DNA of 64,000 nucleotides from a virus. Lineage: Duplodnaviria; Caudoviricetes. The stretch spans positions 1-64,000 of IMG/VR virus record IMGVR_UViG_2906626472_000001, one strand, 5' to 3'. This document shows positions 2,293 to 62,730 of this stretch, piece by piece (within the stretch, counting starts at the first letter, position 1; every line of letters begins with the position of its first letter). Position numbers and translations under genes: made by a program. Under the pieces are notes generated by a model, which was given only the letters and a program-made list of their open reading frames with translations, had not been told where the DNA came from and searched no databases.

Positions 2293-3492
2293 TTACGCGA
2301 CTCGGGAGAGCTTTCGAGACCGCTTTCCTGGACCCCGCTTTTTGGTGATCAGGTTGGTCGCATCGCTCATGTAGTCGGGGTGATGATGACCGTAGTTGTC
2401 GATCAAAACCTTCGGTGACATGCCGAGATATCCTGACGCTTCCCAGATGTCGCAGCCCTGCTGCATGAGCCAAGTCGCAGCGGTATGACGCAGCGTGTGT
2501 GGCGTGACGTTGCCTTCCGAGAGATCAAGCTTCGCCAGCTCGACAGCGCTCGCCATTGCCGTCTTGACGCTCTTGATCGCGGCACCGTTCCACTCGACGA
2601 AGTGACTGGCGACGATCCCCCTGTCGACCCACCGACGCATGTGCGCGAGCAGTCGGTCCGGCAGGGGGATGATAGGCTGCCGCTTGTTGCTCTTCTTCTT
2701 GCCGATCGCCAGGCGGTGGTAGACGCCCTCGTCGAGATCGACATAGGACTTGCCGGTCGCCTTGTGGATCGAGGCGGAAGCGATGGCTGCCGCACGAGTG
2801 CCGGTGTATAGACCGATCAGGATGAACCGGGCGAGATGGCGGAGCGTGTACTTGCCCGTCTTGATCTTGATGCCCTTGTTCTTCCCGCGATGGATCGTCT
2901 GCTCTTCCTTGTATCGCCAGCAGGTCCACAGAAGATGGGCGGCCTCGGAGCGCTGAAGCCAACGCTCTCGACGGTCGCCCTTCTCAGGAAGGTTCACGCT
3001 GATGACAGCTCGATGGAGGTTCTCGTTGCCGTGATGATTGACGGCGGCCCGGAGGTTCTCCAGGTCGCGACGAGCGCCGCCCTTGCTGCCGCGATGCTTG
3101 ACGTAACCATCGGTCATGTCGCTGTTCATCGCGCCCAGGTACTTCTTGCCGAAGTATTTGCCGAGCCGGGTGATCGACTGCTTCAGTCGCCGGATCTGAA
3201 GTTCCTGGGTCTCTTCGTCGTACTCTTTGACCTTGTGCTTGTAATAGATCGCGAGGACGTCGGCGAGCAGGATCTCATCGACGTCGCGCAGCTTGCGCTC
3301 GGGATTGTACTTGGTCGCTATGTACTTGCTGAGCGCTTTTTCCGCTTCCTCGGGCGGTCGTCGCTCACCAGGTTTAACAAGGACTCCTGTGCTAGTTGAG
3401 CTTTCTCCGTCTCGGATAACCCAGACGGATTTACGTCCTCCCTTCCGGGCAGGTCGTTTGTAGAGTCGTGCTCCCTTGTTCTGTTGCGACAT
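2293..3492 (-). CDS. int: Tyrosine recombinase (phage integrase)
   Basis: Catalytic motifs YTGTR, HTLRHTAATW and the Tyr in YGHHHP; adjacent to the att site. Confidence 0.93.
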   Translation of the reverse strand: MSQQNKGARLYKRPARKGGRKSVWVIRDGESSTSTGVLVKPGERRPPEEAEKALSKYIATKYNPERKLRDVDEILLADVLAIYYKHKVKEYDEETQELQIRRLKQSITRLGKYFGKKYLGAMNSDMTDGYVKHRGSKGGARRDLENLRAAVNHHGNENLHRAVISVNLPEKGDRRERWLQRSEAAHLLWTCWRYKEEQTIHRGKNKGIKIKTGKYTLRHLARFILIGLYTGTRAAAIASASIHKATGKSYVDLDEGVYHRLAIGKKKSNKRQPIIPLPDRLLAHMRRWVDRGIVASHFVEWNGAAIKSVKTAMASAVELAKLDLSEGNVTPHTLRHTAATWLMQQGCDIWEASGYLGMSPKVLIDNYGHHHPDYMSDATNLITKKRGPGKRSRKLSRVA

Positions 3493-24265: not shown

Positions 24266-24997
24266 GTGTCATTGGTAGAAAATACAAATATGAAACAGGC
24301 TCCCGCGGCCAACACTAAAGCCAAGCAGCTTGTGATCGAGTGGATCGATCACATCCTGGACCGCAAGAAGTGGAACGGGACTGACTTGGCCCGTGCCGCC
24401 GAACTGGCTCCCTCGACCATTCTTCGACTGCTGAACAATCCTAAGCACCCCTTCGTGCCCACCGTCACGACCTTGCAGAAGATTGCTGATGGATCGGGCT
24501 ATCCTATCCCGAAGAAGGTCATGCAGGCGCTCGGCGCCGAGGGTGAGCGCGGTGACGGCAATGGCGACGAGGCTGACGAGAACATTCGCTCGCTCGGCAC
24601 CGTCCGTACGCGGCAGCCGACTGTCGAGCTTAAGCACATCTCGTCGCTGCCGGCGTCGTTGCAGTCGACGGTGAGCGCGGGGCGGGACTCGTATGTCCCG
24701 GCTCCGCCTCAGCTGGAGGGCGACGAGACTGCATTCGCCTTCCACATGCCGGACAACACCTTCGACCCTTGGTTCAAGTCGGGTTCACTGATGTTCGCGA
24801 CCAAGCGCCGCGATCCAGTGGCCGGCGACACCATTGTTGTCACCGACAAGAACGGACGTGCTCGCGTCCGTCTTCTGATGGACATCACCGAGGCTGGGTT
24901 GAAGCTCACGAAGACCATCCCGGCGACGGAAGATGAAGTAGTGTCCTTCGATGACATCGGGGACATTGCTATCGTCACCATCTTTGTGAAGAGCTGA
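24266..24997 (+). CDS. XRE HTH regulator with a degenerate S24-like C-terminal domain
   Basis: GTDLARAAELAPSTILRL HTH; AFAFHMPDNTFDPWFKSG resembles S24 but has no GDSM serine; GGAGG RBS before the GTG start. Confidence 0.75.
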   Translation: MSLVENTNMKQAPAANTKAKQLVIEWIDHILDRKKWNGTDLARAAELAPSTILRLLNNPKHPFVPTVTTLQKIADGSGYPIPKKVMQALGAEGERGDGNGDEADENIRSLGTVRTRQPTVELKHISSLPASLQSTVSAGRDSYVPAPPQLEGDETAFAFHMPDNTFDPWFKSGSLMFATKRRDPVAGDTIVVTDKNGRARVRLLMDITEAGLKLTKTIPATEDEVVSFDDIGDIAIVTIFVKS

Positions 24998-40844: not shown

Positions 40845-42093
40845 TGCAGCAAGTCGGCAGCTATCTGGAGTACAGCGGCCGTGGCGCCAACGCATTCGGG
40901 AAGGCAGCCATTGACCGATCTCCGACATAGGCCGACCTGTTTTCCAAGATTATCTTGCAATCCCCCAATTGCGTCGCGGTAGGAGCTAGTGCACGTGGAC
41001 AATGCACAATCCAGATTAACCACGCTTTCCCATGTCTTCATCCAGTCAGAATCAGAGAAAGCAGCTTCCCATGCATCCTAGCGTCTCGCCCGGCCTTAAG
41101 CGGGTTCAAGATTACATCCGAGAACAGACGAGTCAAACGACAGCGACTTTTTCAGCATTCGAAGCCGCCGTCACTCGCGCTCATGAACTTTACGACTCCA
41201 TGCCGGCAGAGCTGCGCCTTCGCATTTTTAAAAATATGCATCCGGCGAATTACGGCGATGATATTCGAACTTCATTGTTTGGAATCATTGATGAAGAAGT
41301 GTCACTTCTTGACGCAATCGGAGTGACCTACGGCCATAAACTCCGCGAATTAGTAACGGGGGTTTGGGAAGGATTTAGTCCCCAGCATTTTAGAAGCGCT
41401 GTTCTTTCGTGTCGGACCTTGTACGAAGAGGCAGCAGCGGCGAAGTATTACGGCGATCAGGCCGAATCCGCAATAAAGCACCTACTCTCGACGCCGCCGT
41501 CGGCATATCGATTAGAACGCATGAAAAAATTGAGGGCGACTAATACAGAACGGCTCAAAGTTCTTCTCAATGATACGTCGTCTCCAGCCAAGATACTCAA
41601 AACATGGTACGCAGTGCGAAAAATCGACTGGCAAAAACCAGATTACTTTAACGATCACAAGCTCGACAAAAAAGATCCGCTGTATCCCGGTTTTTTCCTA
41701 TCTGCATTCAAGACACTCAAATGGCAGCATGAAATCCCGGCCGAATACTTTTATGCCCTCCTCTGCGAAGCCACGCATCCGAACATGTTATCGAACACGT
41801 TATATGTCGATGACGCCTCCCAAACCGATAGCGAGCAACTGGTCTATTTAATTCGCAAGATGCCTGTGACGATCGAGCCGTACGTAACACTGTATAGTTT
41901 CGTCTCTGTCCCGACAGTCGAGTGCGTCAAGATCATTGATCAATACATTCAGAAAATAGCCTCCCTTCGATCGGACCTAGCCCAATATGTGCAGAAGGCG
42001 CGGCGAGTTACTGCGTAAGATGTCTCAGTTTGGCCTAGGGCTGCCGAAATGTGGTGCTGCAGCAATCCGGCAGCTATCTGGAGTACACCGGCC
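40845..42093 (+). repeat. 36-bp imperfect direct repeats (40845-40880 and 42058-42093) flanking a low-GC gene
   Basis: TGCAGCAAgtCGGCAGCTATCTGGAGTACAgCGGCC vs TGCAGCAAtcCGGCAGCTATCTGGAGTACAcCGGCC (33/36). Confidence 0.8.
41032..42018 (+). CDS. Low-GC moron gene, helical protein, possibly HEPN/DUF5677-like
   Basis: AT-richer codons and opposite strand to the arm; CRTLYE...YALLCEATHPN pattern. Confidence 0.6.
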   Translation: MSSSSQNQRKQLPMHPSVSPGLKRVQDYIREQTSQTTATFSAFEAAVTRAHELYDSMPAELRLRIFKNMHPANYGDDIRTSLFGIIDEEVSLLDAIGVTYGHKLRELVTGVWEGFSPQHFRSAVLSCRTLYEEAAAAKYYGDQAESAIKHLLSTPPSAYRLERMKKLRATNTERLKVLLNDTSSPAKILKTWYAVRKIDWQKPDYFNDHKLDKKDPLYPGFFLSAFKTLKWQHEIPAEYFYALLCEATHPNMLSNTLYVDDASQTDSEQLVYLIRKMPVTIEPYVTLYSFVSVPTVECVKIIDQYIQKIASLRSDLAQYVQKARRVTA

Positions 42094-48900: not shown

Positions 48901-50602
48901 TGGTGACGACGGTCAGGGTGGGTTGAGGACGTGGGACGAGTCTGGTCACGAACGTTGCTCCTTGAGCGGTGGGGAAGGCATTTGCACGAATGCTAAAGCA
49001 AATGCAAGAGCAAATTCGCCCTAACAAAGCCAAACTTTCATGCGAAAAGATGAGGGTCCGGAAGGCGCTCAGCGCCCGCCCGGAAATTCGAGAATATTTC
49101 CCGAATAAATGGGCCGCCGACGAATTTCGGACCGCCCCGGGGTATTTTCGAAGGCCGCCTCTAGGGCCTCGATCGTGGCTTGGATCACCTGGTCCTGGAC
49201 ACGGGGAGAGAGGACCACGGAGCCGGCTTCCATCAGGATCGCCGACTGGCTCGGGGTCCGATTGGTGCGGGTAGAGTACGCACAGAACAGAGCGCGCAGA
49301 CGCTCACGCATTGGGTTCCTCCATGCGGTTCAGTTTCACGTTTCAGCTGGAAATCACGGGATATCGGGGCCGCCGCCATTCGCGGGCCGCCGGACCTCCA
49401 CCACCTCAAGCAAGAGGCACAGGAGGAGGAGCAGCAGGGACAGGAGACACAGCCAGTAGGGATGGCTCAGGGGAGGGTGCAGACACACGAGGAGTCCACA
49501 CCGGCCTGTTTCTGGCACTCACCAGCACGCAAACACACGGATTTCGAGCGTAGACACGTACGGGCCGTCGTCTCGAAACTTCGCTCGCCATAAAAGAGCG
49601 GATTAATTTTCACGTCGAAATGGGACAAACGGCCCCCTCGGACACAAGATATAGTGCCCGAGGGGGCCAAAATGATCACGAAAGCGGGGTCCAGACCCTG
49701 TTTTGGAGGGGTCACCTACCAGATCTTGTTATCTGGTCAGCTGCGCTATGTGCGCCTCCAGCCCTGAGGCTGCGACTTTGCCTGCCAGTGTCCAGCCGGC
49801 GTATGCAAATGCACACAGGAAGGCAAATGCGACGGGGACGGGGATGACGAGTGCGGAGAGTCTTCTCATGGGATTTCCTTTCAGGGGTTTTGGTCAGGGA
49901 CCGCCAGTGCGCCGGGACGTCGACGGGGCGCACGCCGCCAATTCGGGGTTAGCGAGCGCGGATCTGGAGCGCGGCATCGAGCGGAGGGGTGGCGCGCATC
50001 CGGGCGCCGGTCAGCACGGCGTCTTCCAGATCGTCGGTGTAGTAGGCGGAGGGCTCAGCCTTGGAGTAGGGCAGCTCGGCGAAGGCGACGCGGAACTCGC
50101 GGTCACGGCGAGTGAGGCGCATGCCGGACAAAGCGAGGCGCTGACGGGCTTCGGTGATGGTGAACATGGGACGGATTCCTGGCGTGTGGTGAATCGGTGT
50201 TGCGGGGATGGGGTGGAGGCGTGCTCAGCCGGCCATGATGCGGCCGACGATCGGCGAGTGGCCGGAGCGCAGGAGGCGATTGGGGCGCGGGTAGACGATG
50301 GGCGCGAACCACTCAGCCGGCTTCTTGCGGATGAGCGGGCGCACGGGTGGCGTGGCCTCGACCGGCTCATGTCCGAGCATGGTGCGGACCTGCCGCACGG
50401 TGGCTTTGGTGACGAGCGTACGCCCGGTGCGGACGCACACGAGGCGTGCGTTGGCTGGCGAGGTCTCGATCTGGCGGAGCGTGGCGCGGGACAGCACGAA
50501 CTCAAGGCGCTGGCCGGAGCTGTCGCGTGGGGTGACCCATGACCCGTCGTGTTGGGTCTGGAGGTAGCCGATGGGTGGTCTCATGGCGTGTGGTCCAAAT
50601 AG

Positions 50603-50637
50603 AAACCCCGCCCGGAGACGGACTCCGAGCGGGGGTT
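50603..50637 (-). terminator. Intrinsic terminator after the 50666..51286 gene
   Basis: Minus strand AACCCCCGCTCGGAG-TCCGT-CTCCGGGCGGGGTT followed by TCTATTT. Confidence 0.6.
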
Positions 50638-50665
50638 GAGGAGGGACGGCAGTGGTGGGGTGGGG

Positions 50666-51286
50666 TTACGCGGCCTGCGCAACCGGGGCGGACGCTGCCG
50701 GAGCGGTGGCGGGGGTTGCCTTGGCTTCCTTCGGAGCCTTGGCGCCGCGCGCAGCGGTGGCGTTCTGCTTCTGGCGCTCGACCGCGGTCTCGTCGCCTTC
50801 CGGGCGAATGGCGAGGAGCTTGGCGATCATGCTGGTATGGTCGCGGCCGGTCTCCTTGTGGTCGCGTTCCATCTTCTTGACGAGCGAGTCGATGGACTTG
50901 GCGATGTCCATGGGCACGTAGTCCGCCTCCGGCTTGAAGGCGTAGAACGGCTTGGCCATGGCGTCGCCCAGCTTGACCGGGTTGGCGCCATTGAACTTGA
51001 TGTCGCCACCTTCCGCGAACGTGACGGGACCGAAAAATTCGAACCACGCCTTGACGGCATTCTTGCGCGTCATGTCGGGCAGCGACGAAAGCAGTTCCGT
51101 CACGAGGCGGATGTCGGAATGCTTGCCGACATGGGCGAGCACGGAGCAGCAAGCGACATGGATGTCGCGTTGCAGGGTCGCACCTCGAGTCTTGATCGAA
51201 GCGAGCGCCTTCTTGATGGCGGTTTCGCCGTCAATGAGCTTGATGACGGACGGAGTAGCAGCCTTAACGGTCGTGGTCTTGGACAT
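50666..51286 (-). CDS. First gene of the left arm; hypothetical protein ending APVAQAA
   Basis: AGGAG RBS before MSKTTTVK; strongly biased codons. Confidence 0.75.
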   Translation of the reverse strand: MSKTTTVKAATPSVIKLIDGETAIKKALASIKTRGATLQRDIHVACCSVLAHVGKHSDIRLVTELLSSLPDMTRKNAVKAWFEFFGPVTFAEGGDIKFNGANPVKLGDAMAKPFYAFKPEADYVPMDIAKSIDSLVKKMERDHKETGRDHTSMIAKLLAIRPEGDETAVERQKQNATAARGAKAPKEAKATPATAPAASAPVAQAA

Positions 51287-51289
51287 AGT

Positions 51290-52345
51290 CGGACTCCTGA
51301 TTGACTTGGGGTTTAGATGGGGGTCACGCCCATCGGAAAACGCGAGCGTTAAGCAGCGCTTTGCGAGAGGCATGCAGACACACTCCGAGCGCAGACAGAG
51401 TCGGCGCCCGGAGCGGTTCGGTTTTGGGGAATTTCGAGAGTTGTTAGCCGGGGGAAAGGCTAGGCCTAGTTCCTCGCAAGTCCGGCCAAGCAAAAACCGC
51501 GGTTAGAATTTCGTCGCGGTCCGTCACTTGGCTAACCTTGAAAGGCTATTGAAAAGCTTCACTGTCCCGGCGGACCGTTGCGCCTCAAAGCATGCCATTG
51601 CGGATAGAGGCGGACTCAACGGTCCCGGTTGAACCACGCTACCAGAGGCCGCAGCATTGCGTTATGTCATGGAGTCGGACCGTGACGGCGCAACGTGTCC
51701 CGGATTATGTGCCGTTGTTTGGCTTTAGTCCCGGGCATTGGGCTTGCATTTGAGAGTCGCGCATTGTCCGATTACTAGCCGGGCAATGCGCCATTCCCGC
51801 AAACGTACAGGGTTGATAGCGTAATTTCCGATACTCTCATATGCCGGGTTACCTAACTTAATAGGCCTTCCCATGTGACAGGTCCGTCACTTGAGCGAGA
51901 GGCGTTGCCATGAACGCGGGAAACTTGCCGGACCATATCGCCACTTAAGGCCGCTACTGTGAAACCCGCTTAGAGCATGCTGGCAAGCCGCGCATATCTC
52001 TAGACCGTTTCACCTAACCAAGCCGCCAAGCTTGGCCGGTAACTTCCTTTCCCTCACAACCCGCGATCTAGTGGCACAATGCCAAGCCCGACTAAGGGGA
52101 CTCTAGATCGCCGATTGCTACCGGTAACCCTGTTAGGGTTAGGGCTTTCGGCCCTACTTGGAAGCGGTAGCTATGTCCCGAAAGTTTCTCGCCTAGCTTT
52201 GCTGCCGGTTCCTACCCGGGCAAGCCCGGGACCAAACCATATTGCAAACGCGGTGCAAGAAACCAAAAGCGAAAGGACTTTGAAGGTAAGTCCGAAGTCC
52301 GTTTCGTTTCGGTCCCGAAGCTTCATTGCTTCAGTGACAACAACG
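51290..52345. ncRNA. Candidate large structured non-coding RNA or leader (~1.05 kb)
   Basis: No credible ORF; nearly continuous nested helices (see findings). Confidence 0.6.
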
Positions 52346-53021
52346 TAGCATCAAAAACATGGTTGGAAAGCGAAAAAAATATTCAATGAAATCAGCAAGT
52401 TAGAAGCCCGAAAATTGCATCTCTTGCATTCTCAGAGCAAAAATCGTGCAACAAAAATGCAAGCAAATCAAAGACTTAGCAGAGTGAAACGACGAGTCGG
52501 CAAGTCTGATTTGCATTCCCTTTGGAAAGTCCCCTGAAATGAATACGAAATGAGAACAAACCTTAGACTTTGGTCTAGTCTCTGATCATTTCGAGTATTC
52601 ATCCGGGCGAGAAAAAGATTTCAAAGTTTCGAAAAGAAGAGGATTTTTTTTATTGACATGGCCCCCTCGTGTGGCCGTCCGCTCCAAACTTCCCACGCCC
52701 AAAAGGCCATTTATCACAAGCGCTTGGACCCCACCCGCCCAAACGGCAGCCCCGTGCTACAGCTGCGGCCCGCCATGCGTTAAATCGCTCCCCGAGCTGG
52801 CTCAGTGCCCCCGATCTGGGAGGCCGCTCCTGGGGCTTCTCTGGCCGTTTGCATTCTAGGGGTGGCCTGCAAAAAGACCCCACCCCGTTTTGGGGCCCCA
52901 TCGGGGCGGCCCGCGTCCCAAAAGGCCGATTTCCGAGTGTAGCGAGGGCTTCGCCCTGATACATGAGACCGAACGCCCGCCGCCCATGGGTAGCGAGCGC
53001 TCCGCGCTGATAGGGAGAACC

Positions 53022-53216
53022 ATGGCCGGCCTCGGGCAACACGACACCATCATCGGCTACCGCGTCGACGAGCTGCGCCGGCTCCTCGCCCTGCGGGACG
53101 AGGTGATGCATGTGCTCAGGCCTGGCGCCGATCGGCCGCGCCGCATCGCGGAGTATCTGTCGCAGCGGCACCTCGCCAGGCGCTTCAAGAGCGTCGAGCC
53201 GGCCAACGATCCGTAG
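53022..53216 (+). CDS. Small hypothetical protein between hairpin repeats
   Basis: GGGAG RBS right after the repeat; stop lies just before the next repeat. Confidence 0.55.
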   Translation: MAGLGQHDTIIGYRVDELRRLLALRDEVMHVLRPGADRPRRIAEYLSQRHLARRFKSVEPANDP

Positions 53217-53237
53217 CTGGGTGGCGAGCGCTCCGCG

Positions 53238-53450
53238 CTAACCGGAAGAGGTTGGTCCCGGCCGCGTGGCCCCGGGGAAGGGGACCACATCGCCGTCCGC
53301 TGCGCGTATCACCGCCTTGGCCATCCGCATCGGGTCGAACCCGAGATCTGCGACCGCGTCGGCTACGCCCTGGCGCTCCAGCTCGGCGACGATCGCCTCG
53401 CTCACCTTCATCAGCCTGGCCAGCTCGGCGGAGCTGTCGGTCATGATCAT
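53238..53450 (-). CDS. Small hypothetical protein between hairpin repeats
   Basis: Stop codon overlaps the repeat end; DVVPFP motif. Confidence 0.55.
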   Translation of the reverse strand: MIMTDSSAELARLMKVSEAIVAELERQGVADAVADLGFDPMRMAKAVIRAADGDVVPFPGATRPGPTSSG

Positions 53451-53528
53451 GCCCTCGGTAAAGCCGAGACCATGGTATCACGCCGGCCGTGGGTAGCGAG
53501 CGCTCCGCGCTGATGGTATCGAGCCGGC

Positions 53529-53945
53529 ATGTGGCAGACCAGGCAATGCGAACACTGCGAGACCCCGTTCACCCGTCGAGACCGGCCGAACCAGCGCTTC
53601 TGCTCGCACGACTGCTCGGTGGCCTTCAAGATTAAGGGCCGCCCGACGAGCCGCCGCTGCGAGTGCTGTCCGACCGTCTTCCCGATCGGTGCCCGGCAGA
53701 AGAACAAGCGCTTCTGCTCGATGCACTGCGTCGGTCTCTGGCGCGAGCGCGAGAAGCGCCTGAACCGGAAACCGGAGCCGCCGAGGATCCGCCGCAAGCC
53801 TGGCCGCCTCGAATGGAAGATCTCCGGCGGCCAGAACAGCCGTGGCATGGCGCCGAGCCCGCGGTCACCGTCGTCGTCGCCGCCCCGCTGGGCTGACCTT
53901 CTGACCAGGCTCGGCTACGCCCGGGTCAGAACCGGGCATGGGTAG
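53529..53945 (+). CDS. Protein with two CxxC...RFCSxxC zinc-ribbon repeats
   Basis: CEHC...RFCSHDC and CECC...RFCSMHC; stop is the TAG of the repeat. Confidence 0.65.
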   Translation: MWQTRQCEHCETPFTRRDRPNQRFCSHDCSVAFKIKGRPTSRRCECCPTVFPIGARQKNKRFCSMHCVGLWREREKRLNRKPEPPRIRRKPGRLEWKISGGQNSRGMAPSPRSPSSSPPRWADLLTRLGYARVRTGHG

Positions 53946-54022
53946 CGAGTGCTCCGCGCTGGACTATTGCAACACTGTCGCGGCGCTGGCAGGAATGCGT
54001 CCATCGTTTTCGGGAGGGGGCA

Positions 54023-54430
54023 ATGGCATCCAGCGACGAACGCGCCAAATTACTCCGAATAAGCCGAGGGCTCGACCGACTAAACAACCCATGTCAATTG
54101 TGTAAGCAACGGGGAGCTATTTCGTCGAAAACACACTTTGCTGCAAATTTCGGATTGGCGTTTACGCGGACTGAAAACCATCTGGAGGGCTACTTTTGCG
54201 GGCCATGCATCCATAAGAAATTTCTGCTTTTTACTTTTATCAATTTGATTGGTTGGTTCGGAATAGTGTCCATCATCAAGGTTCCCATGTTTTTGCTGTC
54301 CAATATTGCGGAGTATGAATTTGCGATCAGGGCTATGCTACGAAAGCGCAAGCAGCGCCTCGCCCTGATTGAGGACTTGCTTGAGAAAGACGCGCAAGCC
54401 CGTCGGAATTTGAGTTCTCGAGGATCCTGA
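54023..54430 (+). CDS. Low-GC membrane protein with CxxC pairs
   Basis: CQLC...CGPC followed by a hydrophobic segment. Confidence 0.6.
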   Translation: MASSDERAKLLRISRGLDRLNNPCQLCKQRGAISSKTHFAANFGLAFTRTENHLEGYFCGPCIHKKFLLFTFINLIGWFGIVSIIKVPMFLLSNIAEYEFAIRAMLRKRKQRLALIEDLLEKDAQARRNLSSRGS

Positions 54431-54663
54431 ATCCGATGACGAAACCACCCAAAGAATTGCGCGATCTCGACAAGCAATTTGAGGCGACCCTAATTGCTGT
54501 TCGAGACCTCTATACTAGAGCGATGGAGCTTGGTGTCAGAGACATCGAACGAGCCTCTGAAGTTGCCCACGATGCCCTTGTAGTTTGCAAGCTAGCTCGA
54601 TTACCCACGTCGTGCCGGACGCCCAGAAGTCGAGGGCATGGGTAGCGAGCGCTCCGCGCTGAT

Positions 54664-54771
54664 CTAACCGAACTGATCCGCCACCCGGCTGAACGCTGGG
54701 TGCTTCCGGTTCTTCACCTTGAACCAGTTGCACGTCGGCGGCCGGTATCGCCGCTCGCCGTGCTTGGAGAC
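54664..54771 (-). pseudogene. Diverged duplicate of the DNA ligase 3' end
   Basis: Translates VSKHGERRYRPPTCNWFKVKNRKHPAFSRVADQFG*, versus VSKHRERRYRSRTCDWIKVKNRKHPAYSRVADQF* at 55593. Confidence 0.8.
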
Positions 54772-54813
54772 AAAGAAAGGCCCTTGAAACTATCGGGCAA
54801 TCCGTAGATCAGT

Positions 54814-55077
54814 GTGGCCATGGAAGACTCCTCGCCCGAAATAATTATTTGTGCTGCTGTTCGTGCTTCCAATGGAAAGGTCATCAGGGGCCATCGACAC
54901 ATTGATGCTGTTCGCGCACTTCAAGCGATGGACGGATATCAGGGTGAACAACCGCATGGTGACGACCAGGGCTTCGTCACGTCAACTAACAGGTTCGTAG
55001 ATCGACGGGAGGCCTATCGGCTACATTTTCCAGACAGAGAAGAACCAGACGAGCTTCGCAGCGACGACCTGTACTGA
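54814..55077 (+). CDS. Hypothetical protein
   Basis: IICAA...GHRH...QGFVTSTNRFVDRREAY...L.SDDLY motif. Confidence 0.6.
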   Translation: MAMEDSSPEIIICAAVRASNGKVIRGHRHIDAVRALQAMDGYQGEQPHGDDQGFVTSTNRFVDRREAYRLHFPDREEPDELRSDDLY

Positions 55078-55096
55078 CTGGGGAAAGAACGCAAAG

Positions 55097-55555
55097 ATGA
55101 AAACTCCAAGACTAAACCTTGTCGTTATTGCTGGCTTGCTCGCAAGCATTTCAGGGGTGAATGCCGGTGATGTGGCTGATAAGCCCGCTGTTTTGTCTGT
55201 CACTTGGTTTGTGGAGGGGCAGCCTCCAGCGACAACCAACACTCCCATGAGCAGCTTAAAGGCGTGCTTGCTGGCGAAGGCTCATGCCGAAGCTGCCGGT
55301 GAGCAGGCTCACAACGAGCGTATTCGTTTGAACGAACAAGATAAGGCTGATGTTTTAGAAGGCCGAGTTTCTAAAGCAGATGAAAAAGGATATTGGCAAG
55401 AAGCCCCCGGCGTTTATGCAGTTGACAAAGAAGGTCAACCGCTCAAACCGAGACCTCCTAAGAAATGGGTAGTCACTGAACTTTCGTCAGAAGCAAAGCG
55501 AAAACTCAAGGGTGTTGCCCCACCTCAACTGAGTGCGTTTTGTATAGAGCAGTGA
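55097..55555 (+). CDS. Secreted low-GC hypothetical protein
   Basis: N-terminal signal peptide. Confidence 0.6.
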   Translation: MKTPRLNLVVIAGLLASISGVNAGDVADKPAVLSVTWFVEGQPPATTNTPMSSLKACLLAKAHAEAAGEQAHNERIRLNEQDKADVLEGRVSKADEKGYWQEAPGVYAVDKEGQPLKPRPPKKWVVTELSSEAKRKLKGVAPPQLSAFCIEQ

Positions 55556-55592
55556 TCTGGGATCGCAAAGGACTGGCAAGTCAGGCGCCGCT

Positions 55593-56186
55593 TCAGAACT
55601 GGTCGGCCACGCGGCTGTAAGCCGGATGCTTTCGGTTCTTCACCTTGATCCAGTCGCAGGTGCGTGATCGGTAGCGCCGCTCGCGGTGCTTCGAGACGAT
55701 CCCCTCCAGCTCCATGCGGCAGGCAGCCTCGAACAGCTGCGGGCCGATCTCGCCCTGTTCGAACGGTGCCACAAAGATACCCTCGGGCCGGCGGTGCAGG
55801 ACTTTGGCAAGCTTTCCCTTGCGCTCGAACAGCGGCAGTTCCCGCAGGTCATCGCCTTCGAGCGCCACGATGTCGAAGGTGTAGAACTGCGCCTCGTCAT
55901 TGTGACGGTTGGAGTGCAGCGCGTTGAAGTCCGAGACCCCCCGCACGTCGAGCACGCAGATCTCGCCGTCGATCACGAAGCTCTTCTGCTTGATCTTCAG
56001 CGCGGCCTCGACGATGAACGGGTAGCGCCAGGTCCAGTCGAGGCCCGACCTGGAGAACACCTTCACGTCCTTGCCATCGCGGACCACGCGCCCGCGGTAG
56101 CCGTCGTACTTGATCTCGTGGATCCAGTCCGGCCCGCTCGGCACCACCTTGCGCATTACAGGTTTGCAATACTCAAATCTAAACAT
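55593..56186 (-). CDS. Minimal ATP-dependent DNA ligase (LigD-like adenylation domain only)
   Basis: HEIKYDGYR, IDGE, FDI, EGIVSK and WIKVK; ends without an OB domain. Confidence 0.85.
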   Translation of the reverse strand: MFRFEYCKPVMRKVVPSGPDWIHEIKYDGYRGRVVRDGKDVKVFSRSGLDWTWRYPFIVEAALKIKQKSFVIDGEICVLDVRGVSDFNALHSNRHNDEAQFYTFDIVALEGDDLRELPLFERKGKLAKVLHRRPEGIFVAPFEQGEIGPQLFEAACRMELEGIVSKHRERRYRSRTCDWIKVKNRKHPAYSRVADQF

Positions 56187-56254
56187 GCGCGGCAGATATG
56201 CATGATCGCCGGAGAGTCGAGTCTGTCCGAAAAACGTACCCAATTTTCTGACAG

Positions 56255-56614
56255 TCACAGCTGCAGCGGCAGCGGCAGCTGCACGCCGATTCTCCGGCCG
56301 ACCTGGCTCTCGATGAAGTCCTGCAGCGCGTCGGATATCTCCCGGCCCTCGGTGCCTATCCGGCGCTCCAGCTCGCGGGCGACGTCCTCGCTGGCATCCC
56401 TCGACCAGCCCTCAGCCGGATTGAAGGCGACGACCCGAAGCACCTGGTCGTACTCGCCCCGGAGGAGGTCTTCGATCAGCGTGGAATAGTCGATCCCTTC
56501 GTCGGTCTCGCGGAAGGCCGCGCCGCTCCTGAAGTCCTCCAGCACAAGGTAGAAATCCTTGTCGAGGCGATCGTTCGGCACGATTGACGGCGAGGCCATA
56601 CGCATGAACTCCAC
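56255..56614 (-). CDS. Conserved rhizobial hypothetical protein
   Basis: YLVLEDF...RETDE...RVVAFNPAEGWSRDASEDVA. Confidence 0.65.
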   Translation of the reverse strand: MEFMRMASPSIVPNDRLDKDFYLVLEDFRSGAAFRETDEGIDYSTLIEDLLRGEYDQVLRVVAFNPAEGWSRDASEDVARELERRIGTEGREISDALQDFIESQVGRRIGVQLPLPLQL

Positions 56615-56640
56615 TGACCGGAGTCCAAGGTATGGGACCG

Positions 56641-56904
56641 TTAACCCGAACGCGAGTCGTTGCTGTCGAGAATCCGCACGTAGGTTCCGCTCTCGTGCAT
56701 CTCCAGGAACTTGCGCCCGATCAGGAAGTCGAGGCCGGCCTTGTACTCAGCCGGGCTGGCGCCGTCGCGGAACAGGAAGGGGTAGTTGATCTTCTCGATG
56801 TGCAGCCGGCCGTCCTGCACGGGCTCGACCTCGCGACAGATATGCATCAGCCGTTTCGCCGCGGCCTCTGGCTTGGCGTAGGGCCGGTCCTCTGCGAGCT
56901 TCAT
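56641..56904 (-). CDS. Hypothetical protein
   Basis: PEAAAKRL...IEKINYPFL...HESGTYV. Confidence 0.6.
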   Translation of the reverse strand: MKLAEDRPYAKPEAAAKRLMHICREVEPVQDGRLHIEKINYPFLFRDGASPAEYKAGLDFLIGRKFLEMHESGTYVRILDSNDSRSG

Positions 56905-57344
56905 GCGCCAATCCCCCGGTGGGCACAGTGAATGTGCTCGTCCTGAGACGCGATGGTGATGAACTCGCCGCAGAAGCACCTGGCCGGCGCTCCTCGTGTC
57001 TGCGTCGGCAAGAACAGCTTCTCCTCGTGCATCTTGTCCTTCCAGGCGTGAAAATCTCGAGACCGTCGCCACTCCTCGAAGTGTTCTTCGGTGCGGGTGG
57101 CGAGCAGCTTCTCCCAGTCCCTCTCGAACCCGGCTCTGGCTTCCTCGAAGCTCTCAGCTGTCCCGGTCGTCGACTGGCCCGGCTCGCATCCGGGGTAGAA
57201 GCCGCAGCTCCAGCCCCACTGCGGAGTGTGGTTAGGGATGCCGGCTCGCTTTGCGATGTGACCGACCCGCACGTCACCCCAGTAGACGAACCAGCCGCCG
57301 GCTCGGTGTGGGTCCTTGTCGGGCTTGCGATGCAGATGGCTCAT
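56901..57344 (-). CDS. Hypothetical protein
   Basis: WGWSCGFYPG...FEEARAGFE and a C-terminal CxC...H motif. Confidence 0.6.
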   Translation of the reverse strand: MSHLHRKPDKDPHRAGGWFVYWGDVRVGHIAKRAGIPNHTPQWGWSCGFYPGCEPGQSTTGTAESFEEARAGFERDWEKLLATRTEEHFEEWRRSRDFHAWKDKMHEEKLFLPTQTRGAPARCFCGEFITIASQDEHIHCAHRGIGA

Positions 57345-57356
57345 GATTTCTCAGGT

Positions 57357-57475
57357 GTGATCGGCATTCACAGGTGTGATCCTCGTTCACAGGGGGGGTG
57401 TGATCCTTGTTCACACCCGATGTGAACCTGGTTCACACCTTTAACCTCCCTATAGAACCTTCCACCATAAGAACC
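57357..57475. repeat. Second iteron cluster (four copies) with rep-like flank, intergenic
   Basis: GTGATCGGCATTCAC, GTGATCCTCGTTCAC (identical to 22940-22954), GTGATCCTTGTTCAC, GTGAACCTGGTTCAC. Confidence 0.8.
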
Positions 57476-57796
57476 ATATCCCCTACCCCTTACGGGGCAG
57501 GGCGCTGGCTGGTCATTCCGGTTCCTTGATGTAGAGCTGGCCGCCGGCCTCGTAGACCATCGCTTGGTCGTTCTTCACCAGCTCGGCCGCGGCGACGAAG
57601 CTCTCGATCGTGACCCGAACGCCATGCCGGTTCCTGCCAATGGCAGCCAGCAGGGTGGTCTTCAGCTTCTCGAATGCGATCTCGTCCTCGGTCATGACCA
57701 GTTCCTATTCCTGCCGGCCGGCGGTTTCAACAGATCGGCCGGAAATACCTCCGAGGTGTTGAAACCGGTCCCCATTTGCATTTTCATTTGCCGGAC

Positions 57797-57852
57797 TTGA
57801 CAAACAGGGGGAGGGTGCTGTACCAGATCAGCTACCGTTAGCATTCGTGCAA
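57797..57852 (+). promoter_or_regulatory. Possible rightward sigma70-like promoter with a downstream dyad motif
   Basis: TTGACA-17 nt-GTACCA; TAGCATTCGTGCAA at 57839-57852. Confidence 0.4.
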
Positions 57853-58896
57853 ACGGGAAACAAGCCCCAGGACATGGCCCGGAACATACGCCGGGACGTT
57901 GGGCGGCGTCCGGACCCACAAACCCCATGCTGCCGCCGCGATGGCGCCCGGCGAGGCGACACGAGTTCGGCATGTCCAGGCGCTTGCATGAATGCAAACG
58001 GAGGAGGACATCGTGACGGCAGACATCGAGTTCCTGATGGTTCTCAGCAGAACCATCCTGCAGCTGATGCTGCTCTCGGGCAGTGCCATCGTCACGGTCC
58101 TGGTCGTCACCCTCGTCGTCTGGCTGTTCGGAGGTCTGCGTGGCTGACCTCCTGCGCGGCGTGTCGCCCGAGCGCAAGGAGAAGATCCTGGCGCGGGCCG
58201 AGGAACTCATCCGCGAAGAGCGGATGCGGCGAGGGCGCTTCGCGCCCCCAGACGAAATCCAAAACGCCGCCGACCCGTTCGAGCTGCGCCCCGCCAACTG
58301 GGTGCTGGCCTCGATGCTCGCCATGGGCGCCGCCACCATCATTGCGCTGATCGCTACCGCCCTGCGTGCGGCAGGCTCCAAAGTTTAACCAGAGCCCGCG
58401 GCCTGCCCCAGGCAGCCCGGGTCACCATTTGAGGCGTGCATGTCTGTGCCTGACGAACTCGTCGATCTCGCGCTCGAAGCGCTGGAGGCCGAAGTCGCGT
58501 GCTGGCGCAAGGTGCCATGGCGCCCAGACTACACCCGCCTGATGCGCTTCTCGGACACCTGCCGCGGTCCCGTTGGACCTGCGGAGGTTACCGAGGAGGA
58601 GGCGACCATCACCTGCCACGACGTGCCAACGCACATGGCTGACGACATGATCGTCCGCTTCGCGATGGAGAAGGTCGTAGAGGCCGTCATCGGCGCCATC
58701 TCGGTCGGAGGTGAGTGATGGCGCGATCGTCTTACGTCTACGTGGTCATGACCAACGGCTCGCCCGAGGCGGCCTTCACGGTCAAGCACGAGCTGGCCAC
58801 CTACCTGAACAAGCGCGACCCCATGAAGCCGCCGTACACCATCTGGCGGCTGCGCGATGGCGGCAAAGAACCCGAACTCACGCAGATCATCGAGCT

Positions 58897-59786: not shown

Positions 59787-59861
59787 GCTGGGGTAGCTCA
59801 ACGGTAGAGCGCCTGGCTTCCAACCAGGTGGTTGTGGGTTCGAGCCCCACCCCTCGCTCCA
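59787..59861 (+). tRNA. tRNA-Gly(TCC)
   Basis: Cloverleaf with CCTGG-CTTCCAA-CCAGG anticodon arm, GTTCGA T-loop, U73 and CCA; T3-C70 mismatch. Confidence 0.85.
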
Positions 59862-62473: not shown

Positions 62474-62548
62474 GCCTGGGTAGCTCAGCGGTAGAGCAGC
62501 GGGGTCATAATCCGCTTGTCGTAGGTTCGATCCCTGCCCCCGGCACCA
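62474..62548 (+). tRNA. tRNA(CAT), Met or Ile2
   Basis: TAGCTCAG D-arm, GCGGG-GTCATAA-TCCGC anticodon arm, GTTCGA and ACCA; T4-C69 mismatch and G32. Confidence 0.8.
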
Positions 62549-62656
62549 AATTCAAGCCGCAAGGCGCACGCTCCCCCGCGTACCGACGACTGGTCACTCC
62601 GTCGCGTGAAGAAATCGGAGAGGGGGATCAACACACACGCCATTGAAAATTCATGC

Positions 62657-62730
62657 ATCGGGGTCCTCCGGCGTAGGCGGCCGGTCTCCAAAACTGCGCT
62701 GCGAGAGTTCGAGTCTCTCCCCCGGTGCCA
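62657..62730 (+). tRNA. tRNA-Trp(CCA) with atypical D-arm
   Basis: CTCCAAA anticodon loop, GAGAG-TTCGAGT-CTCTC T-arm, G73 and CCA; weak D-arm. Confidence 0.7.

Follow-up and report, generated by a model that had tools for sequence, protein, structure and literature searches.

A conserved 24-bp hairpin repeat as a probable boundary element of a variable accessory-gene array in temperate Bradyrhizobium phages

What is the role of six co-oriented copies of a ~24-bp hairpin repeat that lie between small open reading frames (ORFs) in a single 1.7-kb locus of a phage genome? The question is raised by the stretch of 64,000 nucleotides analyzed here (hereafter the window; positions 1 to 64,000 of IMG/VR record IMGVR_UViG_2906626472_000001), which, judged by its similarities, covers the greater part of a large prophage akin to Bradyrhizobium phage BDU-MI-1 (121 kb); the part between 3.9 and 22.8 kb is 78% alike to that phage. 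An earlier note on this DNA had put forward three possible roles for the repeats, namely single-stranded DNA (ssDNA) hairpin promoters, recombination sites of an integron-like cassette array and sites for a packaging protein. On balance, we favour the view that the repeats are boundary elements of a hypervariable accessory-gene array, in which genes would be exchanged by short homology and the unit would itself be selected as a hairpin. Going by the related sequences, the array has a fixed site in temperate Bradyrhizobium phages of ~120 kb that resemble BDU-MI-1, with a conserved leader on one side and the gene for a small DNA ligase on the other. Its evolutionary behaviour, as read from the comparison of loci (co-oriented repeats that are conserved, cargo that varies and breakpoints that fall at the repeats), is well supported, and by analogy the array is best read as integron-like in layout and as similar in evolution to the promoter-early stem-loop (PeSL) motifs of T4-type phages.

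Within positions 52934-54660 we found six co-oriented units of ~24 bp, all on the plus strand, where zero are expected by chance. The 22-mer TGGGTRGCGAGYGCTCCGCGCT has five exact matches (at 52987, 53218, 53490, 53939 and 54639) against none in 100 shuffles, and the variant copy at 52939, GTAGCGAGGGCTTCGCCCT, was recovered with a looser pattern. In a scan of the whole window all six zero-mismatch matches of this looser pattern fell within 52939-54660, and the four further matches with one or two mismatches were at chance level (mean 2.25). A repeat finder returned the same six copies in register, spaced by 51, 231, 272, 449 and 700 bp. The positions and spacing given in the earlier note are thus corroborated, and the same holds for the gene junctions it described: the ORFs 53529..53945 and 54436..54645 end on the TAG of the repeat itself, the stop of the minus-strand ORF 53238..53450 overlaps the end of the copy at 53218, and the copy at 52987 is followed by a ribosome-binding site and a start codon (GGGAGAACC-ATG, with the ATG at 53022). 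The stem mismatch reported for the copy at 53939 is also real, as this copy reads AGTGC/GCGCT and thus has a T.G on the top strand and an A.C on the bottom strand. With respect to the extent of the repeat, the hairpin had been delimited correctly but the left edge had not, for the conserved unit begins 5 nt further left, at CRTGG; likewise, in the relatives the reported 'GTAG' is often replaced by CCGG, GCGG or GCAG.

To describe the unit in full, 70 copies from 17 loci were collected in a scan that fixed GCG, A7, G8, T12, C18 and T19 and required at least four of the five pairs. The resulting consensus is CRTGG-GTAGCG-AGCGC-TNC-GCGCT, of which the left hexamer can also be written GYRGCG (GTAGCG in 36/70 copies, CCGGCG in 15/70; GT[AG]G is present in 40/70). 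Information content climbs steeply at position -5 and drops past +19, with random flanks on either side, and 11 columns are invariant. The conserved span (-5..+19) includes a 13-nt hairpin with a perfect 5-bp stem and a 3-nt loop. The repeat is near-identical between loci, as opposed to the leader and the cassettes, which are ~63-86% alike. Among the 68 distinct rows the free stem positions are invariant apart from pair 3 (C:G in 60 rows, G:C in 7, U:G in 1, none unpaired) and pair 5 (C:G in 67, U:G in 1). Counted over all 70 copies, the stem is therefore constant save for seven double changes (AGGGC/GCCCT) and two wobble changes; such double-sided changes numbered 0.8 in shuffles, and none of 500 shuffles attained the observed 7. 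The stem variant of repeat 1, which the earlier note had interpreted as a compensatory change from AGCGC/GCGCT to AGGGC/GCCCT, recurs in six other copies of this set. A metagenome scan left the three inner stem bases free on both arms. At least 42 of the first 119 loci returned carry copies of the family, and in these 42 loci a pattern that admitted all four arm combinations gave 63 CGC/GCG copies, 8 GGC/GCC copies and no mixed ones, so that 71 of 71 are stem-matched.

The loop is constrained in a different manner. On the top strand it reads TCC in 41 copies, TTC in 18, TAC in 8 and otherwise in 3, which corresponds on the bottom strand to GNA in 67 of the 70 copies (GGA 41, GAA 18 and GTA 8, the last not being purine-centred); the heptamer GC-GNA-GC is found on that strand in the same 67, and all four bases occur at the middle loop position among the metagenome copies. 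The accessible text of two papers describes GC-GNA-GC as a stable DNA mini-hairpin and as the hairpin type of the phage N4 promoters (PMC4496689, PMC13037366). Because of the near-identity of the repeats, the retained pairing and the retained G..A of the loop, the unit would seem to be under selection as a sequence-specific hairpin, and it is probably recognized by a protein.

The cargo behaves quite differently from the repeats. Inter-repeat segments were compared all against all by tblastx, and the B cassette (ORF letters as in Table 1) was aligned over five arrays. Homologous cassettes were found at several positions in the arrays, where their neighbours differed. The B cassette (230-273 bp), which lies between repeats in five other arrays, is cassette 3 in the window and, for instance, cassette 1 in locus L151, 3 in L068, 4 in L061 and 5 in L067, and a homologue of ORF C lies in cassette 2 of L151. 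Shared cassettes always have the same orientation relative to the repeats; the sole inverted homologous pair (the right flank of L063 versus cassette 1 of L070) involves array-flanking sequence. In the B-cassette alignment homology begins directly after the left repeat in 5/5 arrays; on the right side it stops at the repeat in 2/5 and runs on into cassette C in 3/5. The contigs of four public runs break at 52933, 52990, 53011, 53217, 53488, 53513, 53961/53965 and 54664/54670, one metagenome contig spans exactly 52990-53217, i.e. cassette A, and in a 48-kb contig of another strain 2,412 other letters replace 53962-54846. These alignments show that homology with the contigs of other strains starts and ends at the repeat edges, and that related phages and islands share the repeats but differ in cargo. 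The comparison across relatives, which the earlier note had proposed as a check, thus finds the repeats kept, the cargo variable and the breakpoints at the repeats.

The same note had suggested a genome-wide count, considering that the motif might be a common host element scattered over the chromosome. Four whole genomes, 400 genomes of the genus and two complete phage records were used for this, standing in for the genome of the source host. In all four whole genomes (7.4-9.9 Mb) the motif forms a single cluster, made up of 2-5 copies in the same orientation; there was one stray match and no control match. The 16-nt core was found in 159 of the 400 genus genomes, most of these matches being singletons about as frequent as in the controls; 8 genomes had arrays of at least three copies. 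BDU-MI-1 carries three exact and three near copies on one strand within 2.6 kb of its 121 kb, and in a complete 127.6-kb provirus (G401) the only copies on the array strand are the six at 63.3-65.0 kb. Apart from the singletons, the motif is therefore confined to one locus of 1-3 kb per genome or phage record, which is not the distribution of a scattered host repeat. In a scan of one genome per species the multi-copy loci (L045, which has the spacing of the window itself, L027, L029 and L033) were confined to Bradyrhizobium records, plus one contig of a metagenome-assembled genome (MAG) with two copies.

Considering these data, we infer that cassettes are gained, lost and reshuffled through recombination between co-oriented repeats. 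Exchange would most likely proceed via short homology, with the help of general or phage-encoded recombination functions, and this preference is based on the analogy with PeSLs (PMC2839356); the recombination genes of the window comprise a RecE-like exonuclease, further exonucleases and a RuvC-like resolvase. In the accessible part of the paper concerned, PeSL motifs are described as shuffling T4-type phage genes (PMC2839356). The likeness resides in the repeated intergenic stem-loop motifs, which are concentrated in hyperplastic regions beside ORFans, and in the insertions, deletions and replacements between related phages that map to the motifs (PMC2839356, as far as accessible); both features, a stem-loop beside ORFans and phage differences mapping to the motifs, are found in the array studied here. 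According to the same text, PeSLs are composites of sigma-70 promoters and terminators, only loosely alike, with ~50 per genome in several regions (PMC2839356). A further mark of PeSLs is the excision of mini-circles through exchange between motifs. In contrast, the array described here has no promoter consensus, a near-identical 24-bp unit, a single locus behind a leader and ORFs in both orientations, and the motif contains no early promoter of the sigma-70 type.

Several observations weigh against the favoured reading. No partner protein emerges for the hairpin: in seven arrays ORF B is found at 28-65 nt from a repeat, yet it is absent from the array of BDU-MI-1, and as a candidate repeat-binding protein it is not supported, since it is repeat-free in five of eight further loci and has no significant fold match. 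Some contig breaks lie away from the repeats (53365, 53828, 54768-54838 and 55075-55083). The 70-copy scan itself preset five bases and at least four of five pairs, the compensated stem variant may go back to one ancestral double change as its sole origin, and decayed copies with a broken closing pair are present in other genomes. In nearest-neighbour folding the hairpin is not unusually stable (the common form has a z of ~0, the variant one of -1.2 to -2.3), the folding energy being -4.7 to -6.5 kcal/mol at z ~0 with parameters that may not model the sheared G.A loop. Repeat orientation is not absolute either, as 71 same-strand copies stand against 4 opposite ones in the metagenome loci; the latter represent one distinct copy, the sole inverted one, of the CCGGCG type with a TTC loop, which lies between co-oriented copies within an array in four contigs (L233, L266, L214 and L291). 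Finally, the tally of neighbouring genes was made for 69 copies with a home-made codon-usage caller, and about half of these had no called neighbour: on the left side 22 copies had a minus-strand and 12 a plus-strand neighbour while 35 lacked one, and on the right side the corresponding counts were 26, 13 and 30.

The layout of the array also raises the possibility of dedicated, structure-specific recombination, in which the bottom-strand GNA mini-hairpin and its CGCYRC tail would be cut and rejoined as ssDNA by a putative phage or host enzyme, as in an integron without the integron integrase (IntI). The GNA loop in 67/70 copies, the C:G closing pair and the kept pairing are more readily explained by a folded single strand than by a duplex site, and the near-constant repeat orientation (71 versus 4), the kept orientation of cassettes relative to repeats, the conserved leader on one side only, the tight fit of ORFs that often terminate on the TAG of the repeat, and a DNA ligase gene as usual neighbour all agree with such a system. 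As in integrons, a leader is present on one side only, single tightly fitted ORFs are each followed by a folded-strand site in a common orientation, and the cassettes are site-bounded units that are reshuffled as such, with a minority of the ORFs inverted. Integron attC sites, however, are imperfect palindromes of 57-141 bp with R''/L''-L'/R' boxes and RYYYAAC/GTTRRRY cores, whereas the present unit is a perfect 13-nt hairpin with a tail of 6-11 nt and no GTTRRRY core; to our knowledge this is far below the size of any known recombinase site. Moreover, the array is phage-borne and has no IntI beside it. No candidate enzyme was found: a Y1/HUH transposase (RAYT/IS200) is lacking from four related phage records, although control genomes did give matches, the array-flanking ORFs include no recombinase and have no match in Pfam or PHROGs, and the sole integrase of the window (2296-3492) is ~50 kb away. 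In addition, a constant orientation is equally expected from exchange between collinear genomes. The integron-like sites of the earlier note are consequently retained as an evolutionary pattern (variable cargo, breakpoints) and dropped as an actual integron, and we consider it unlikely that these phages have an integrase-less cassette platform in which a folded 13-nt GNA mini-hairpin with a short tail serves a putative enzyme, possibly together with the neighbouring minimal DNA ligase. We regard as similarly unlikely that the repeats are dispersed operators, bound as duplex by a phage regulator that would silence or time each accessory gene at its boundary, with shuffling as a by-product. Operators of this kind are known from P1 (C1 sites), mycobacteriophage L5 (stoperators) and phiC31 (conserved inverted repeats, CIRs), and the likeness is that of many conserved 13-20 bp sites in the short intergenic gaps of a temperate phage. 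The sequence-specific conservation over ~24 bp including the asymmetric left part, the strictly intergenic sites and the position of the array between a leftward early arm and a rightward arm are in line with this, and the conserved left neighbour 50666-51286 has the phiC31 repressor-c domain as its nearest named Atlas cluster, at a score of 0.80 that is under the 0.9 bar and thus a lead only. Nevertheless, the known operators are scattered through the genome or throughout the early region, including the gene of the repressor itself, whereas here all copies are in one accessory locus and none is near the CI-like repressor gene (24266-24994) or elsewhere in the window. A symmetric, compensated double change without mixed arms and a non-symmetric conserved spacer (T..C) are unlike the site of a homodimer on duplex DNA, and the protein 50666-51286, as a candidate regulator, has no Pfam family (34 homologues), no PDB sequence match and a best fold match at E 0.54.

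An RNA element, i.e. an intercistronic processing, stabilizing or attenuating signal acting mainly on the minus strand (AGCGC-GNA-GCGCU-CGCUACCC-AUG), seems slightly less probable still. In its favour, minus-strand neighbours are about twice as frequent as plus-strand ones on both sides (22 versus 12 and 26 versus 13), in 19 of 26 cases the distance between the minus-strand stop and the hairpin is at most 15 nt, a minus-strand start lies 3-6 nt from the left end of the repeat in five cases and both single stem changes are compatible with wobble pairing, albeit on the top strand. Against this stand ORFs on both strands (in the window four out of five are on the plus strand), a stem sequence that is invariant beyond what pairing alone would require, a weak hairpin without a U-tract, the lack of the motif at the many other small early genes of the phage (42-51 kb) and the lack of an Rfam match. 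Promoters of the N4 type, read as ssDNA hairpins by an injected virion RNA polymerase (vRNAP), are very improbable and largely refuted, even though the bottom-strand GCGGAGC/GCGAAGC with its 5-bp stem is of the N4 early-promoter hairpin type, with the same C:G closing pair and free middle loop base (PMC4496689, PMC13037366, accessible text), the stem bases show the kind of conservation that reading by a protein would leave, and a G follows a 4-nt spacer in three of the six window copies. Hairpins of this type have a stem of 5-7 bp and a 3-nt G-R-A loop that is closed by C:G on one strand. A T7-like polymerase domain (RNA_pol, PF00940) is absent from the four related phage records, of which two are at least 98% complete, although the control genomes were equally without matches, which makes this a weak test by itself. 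The longest ORF comprises 1,192 codons in the complete 127.6-kb provirus and 1,161 in the window, as compared to ~3,500 amino acids for the vRNAP of N4 (PMC13037366, accessible text). Furthermore, N4 is described there as having three promoters ahead of its early genes, whereas the array has 6-9 copies between ORFs of both orientations, those of BDU-MI-1 run against the predicted transcription, and we are dealing with a temperate 120-kb phage with an integrase. Equally improbable are host repetitive extragenic palindromic (REP) elements mobilized by a REP-associated tyrosine transposase (RAYT). REPs have a GTAG-like 5' part followed by a hairpin, which the unit resembles, but the tens to hundreds of scattered copies and the Y1 transposase that go with them were found neither in the genomes nor in the phage records examined, respectively (the Y1_Tnp search covered the four phage records, with positive controls). 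The lack of genome-wide spread in the genomes searched refutes this explanation, given that the motif is locus-specific in 4/4 whole genomes and forms arrays in just 8/400, and GT[AG]G is present in only 40/70 copies. The search for a virion polymerase or a HUH/RAYT nuclease that the earlier note had proposed thus yielded neither in the related phage records, and its promoter suggestion, for which the heptamer matches, is contradicted by the missing polymerase domain in two complete relatives and by cargo on both strands. Nothing supports its third suggestion, packaging-protein sites; in the 127.6-kb provirus the array is located mid-record.

Some further candidates were tried and rejected. 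Translation of the repeat as an N-terminal peptide (MGSERSAL from an RTG at -4) gives frames that mismatch ORFs C and D, and a function as minus-strand start codon would apply to only 5 of 22 minus-strand neighbours, namely those starting 3-6 nt from the left end of the repeat. A reading in terms of clustered regularly interspaced short palindromic repeats (CRISPR), with leader and repeats, has to accept 'spacers' of 32-2,376 bp that bear ORFs. An alternative fold of the top-strand RNA (GCG 4-6 with CGC 14-16) is broken by the CCGGCG and class-2 variants. A promoter scan of 51400-55700 gave two sites, neither of them at a repeat, and the sigma-54, LexA and CtrA boxes that we know of do not fit. 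The accessible part of the literature on BDU-MI-1, Bradyrhizobium prophages and phage intergenic hairpin repeats or gene cassettes contains no description of these repeats.

If the repeats indeed drive the exchange of cassettes, the array would provide a compact and clearly bounded case of temperate phages that assemble and trade accessory genes. The defined 24-bp junction makes such events traceable by polymerase chain reaction or long reads and searchable in metagenomes. It would also give the extraordinarily stable GCGNAGC mini-hairpin a natural context beyond the priming sites and N4 promoters with which it has so far been linked. The hosts are nitrogen-fixing symbionts of soybean and other legumes, whose phage-borne accessory genes are little explored. 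Should the less likely platform reading be true, the ~120-kb temperate Bradyrhizobium phages and the chromosomal islands derived from them could capture and reorder single accessory genes.

The features of the array and its surroundings are collected in Table 1.

Table 1. Coordinates of the repeats, cassettes and flanking features in the window
Feature	Position	Strand	Basis or remark
Leader, non-coding, conserved	52610..52935	.	directly left of first repeat; blastn and MAFFT
Repeat 1	52934..52957	+	stem variant AGGGC-TTC-GCCCT, pair 3 changed on both sides
Repeat 2	52985..53008	+	CATGG-GTAGCG-AGCGC-TCC-GCGCT
Cassette ORF A, 64 aa, no family	53022..53216	+	Pfam/PHROG
Repeat 3	53216..53239	+	GTGGCG variant
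Cassette ORF B, 70 aa, conserved three-helix protein, no assigned fold	53238..53450	-	
Repeat 4	53488..53511	+	
Cassette ORF C, 138 aa, two FCS-type zinc fingers	53529..53945	+	Pfam, PHROG
Repeat 5	53937..53960	+	AGTGC: top-strand T.G wobble
Cassette ORF D, 135 aa, low GC, no family	54023..54430	+	
Cassette ORF E, 69 aa, low GC, ends on TAG of repeat	54436..54645	+	no Pfam/PHROG match
Repeat 6 (last)	54637..54660	+	
DNA-ligase 3' end relic, 102 nt	54670..54771	.	direct repeat, 81% alike to 55596-55697
ATP-dependent DNA ligase, conserved right-hand array neighbour	55593..56258	-	Pfam DNA_ligase_A_M E 5.7e-26, PHROG 114

The segments between repeats range from 32 to 2,376 bp and mostly contain one small ORF without a family, tightly fitted and in either orientation. 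ORF 3' ends adjoin the repeats, as five plus-strand ORFs terminate on the TAG of a repeat and, for 19 of 26 minus-strand ORFs, the stop is no more than 15 nt away from the hairpin; all ORFs called in the BDU-MI-1 array are oriented opposite to those of the window. GC content is 0.684 at 53-54 kb as against 0.523 at 54-55 kb. The ORF B family counts 323 homologues, mostly of ~63 amino acids, which are highly conserved and many of which end in ...PRGH. The structural model of ORF B has a predicted local distance difference test score (pLDDT) of 85.8, had no Foldseek match at E <= 0.001 and reached a best Z of 5.1 in the VIA search, which is in the noise band; it lends no support to the labels ThiS or RuvA that some sources attach to the protein. 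ORF C matches Pfam zf-FCS_1 below the cut-off (E 0.0029) and PHROG 1271 (HNH endonuclease, C-terminal part; E 4.8e-9).

The leader (~330 bp) is 70-95% alike ahead of the first repeat in seven other arrays, including that of BDU-MI-1, and precedes the first repeat in every examined array whose left side is present. It holds a T-run and a TTGACA-like stretch, a palindromic stretch (GGGGTGG...CCACCCC / CCCCGTTTTGGGG) and a weak terminator-like site on the minus strand (52896-52882). RNAalifold produced weak consensus structures with little covariation for both strands of the leader, and an Rfam search of 50000-58000 gave no family at threshold, with a single sub-threshold match (E 0.96).

On the right-hand side, the DNA ligase has homologues in Bradyrhizobium phages, and directly after the last hairpin repeat lies the relic of a ligase 3' end. 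Contigs of three other runs join 55595 straight to 54670, after which a relic-like version follows. Judged from these junctions, the relic shows the trace of an older module swap, and ORFs F and G (54814-55555) seem to have arrived with the new ligase as one block. The small ligase, an ORF of 87 amino acids (MK[LF].....PYA.PE...) and one of ~145 amino acids recur beside arrays (55593-57344 in the window; L070 and L072), even in chromosomal islands without phage genes, and one MAG contig has the pair of 87 and ~145 amino acids twice. Several arrays lie in chromosomal surroundings without obvious phage genes, where a ligase fragment and the two conserved small ORFs are usually nearby. The conserved right-hand ORFs (56258-57695) have no Pfam or PHROG family.

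The array is located between a leftward early arm and a rightward arm. The minus-strand arm (1-51.5 kb) encodes the integrase (2296-3492), ThyX, ribonucleotide reductase, a RecE-like and other exonucleases, a primase/helicase, a replication initiator, a RuvC-like resolvase, the CI-like repressor (24266-24994), a helicase and RIIA/RIIB-like proteins; to the right of the array are the small ATP-dependent DNA ligase, three transfer RNAs and a tail-fibre gene. Within the early arm, the kilobase 41001-42000 has a low GC content (0.48 versus ~0.61).

A few minor observations concern the cargo and the flanks. Inside ORF D, at 54354-54369, the sequence AGCGCCTCGCCCTGAT resembles a class-2 repeat in which one arm has stayed unchanged and the loop is CTC, and could be either a decayed copy or a chance match. 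Cassette 1 of L070 (2,376 bp, between repeats) encodes an aquaporin-like protein of 242 amino acids with the look of the MIP family, and therefore the cargo is not restricted to tiny ORFans. To the right of the array in L061 (G001:C83) lies an ORF of 542 amino acids that resembles a type I restriction-modification methylase (HsdM-like N-terminus), followed by one of 382 amino acids; as these abut the last repeat, the cargo adjacent to arrays may include defence genes. In the rightward arm of the window the transfer RNA genes are Gly-TCC (59787-59861), Met-CAT (62474-62548) and Trp-CCA (62657-62730), the last of which overlaps the start of a long tail-fibre-like ORF called at 62643.

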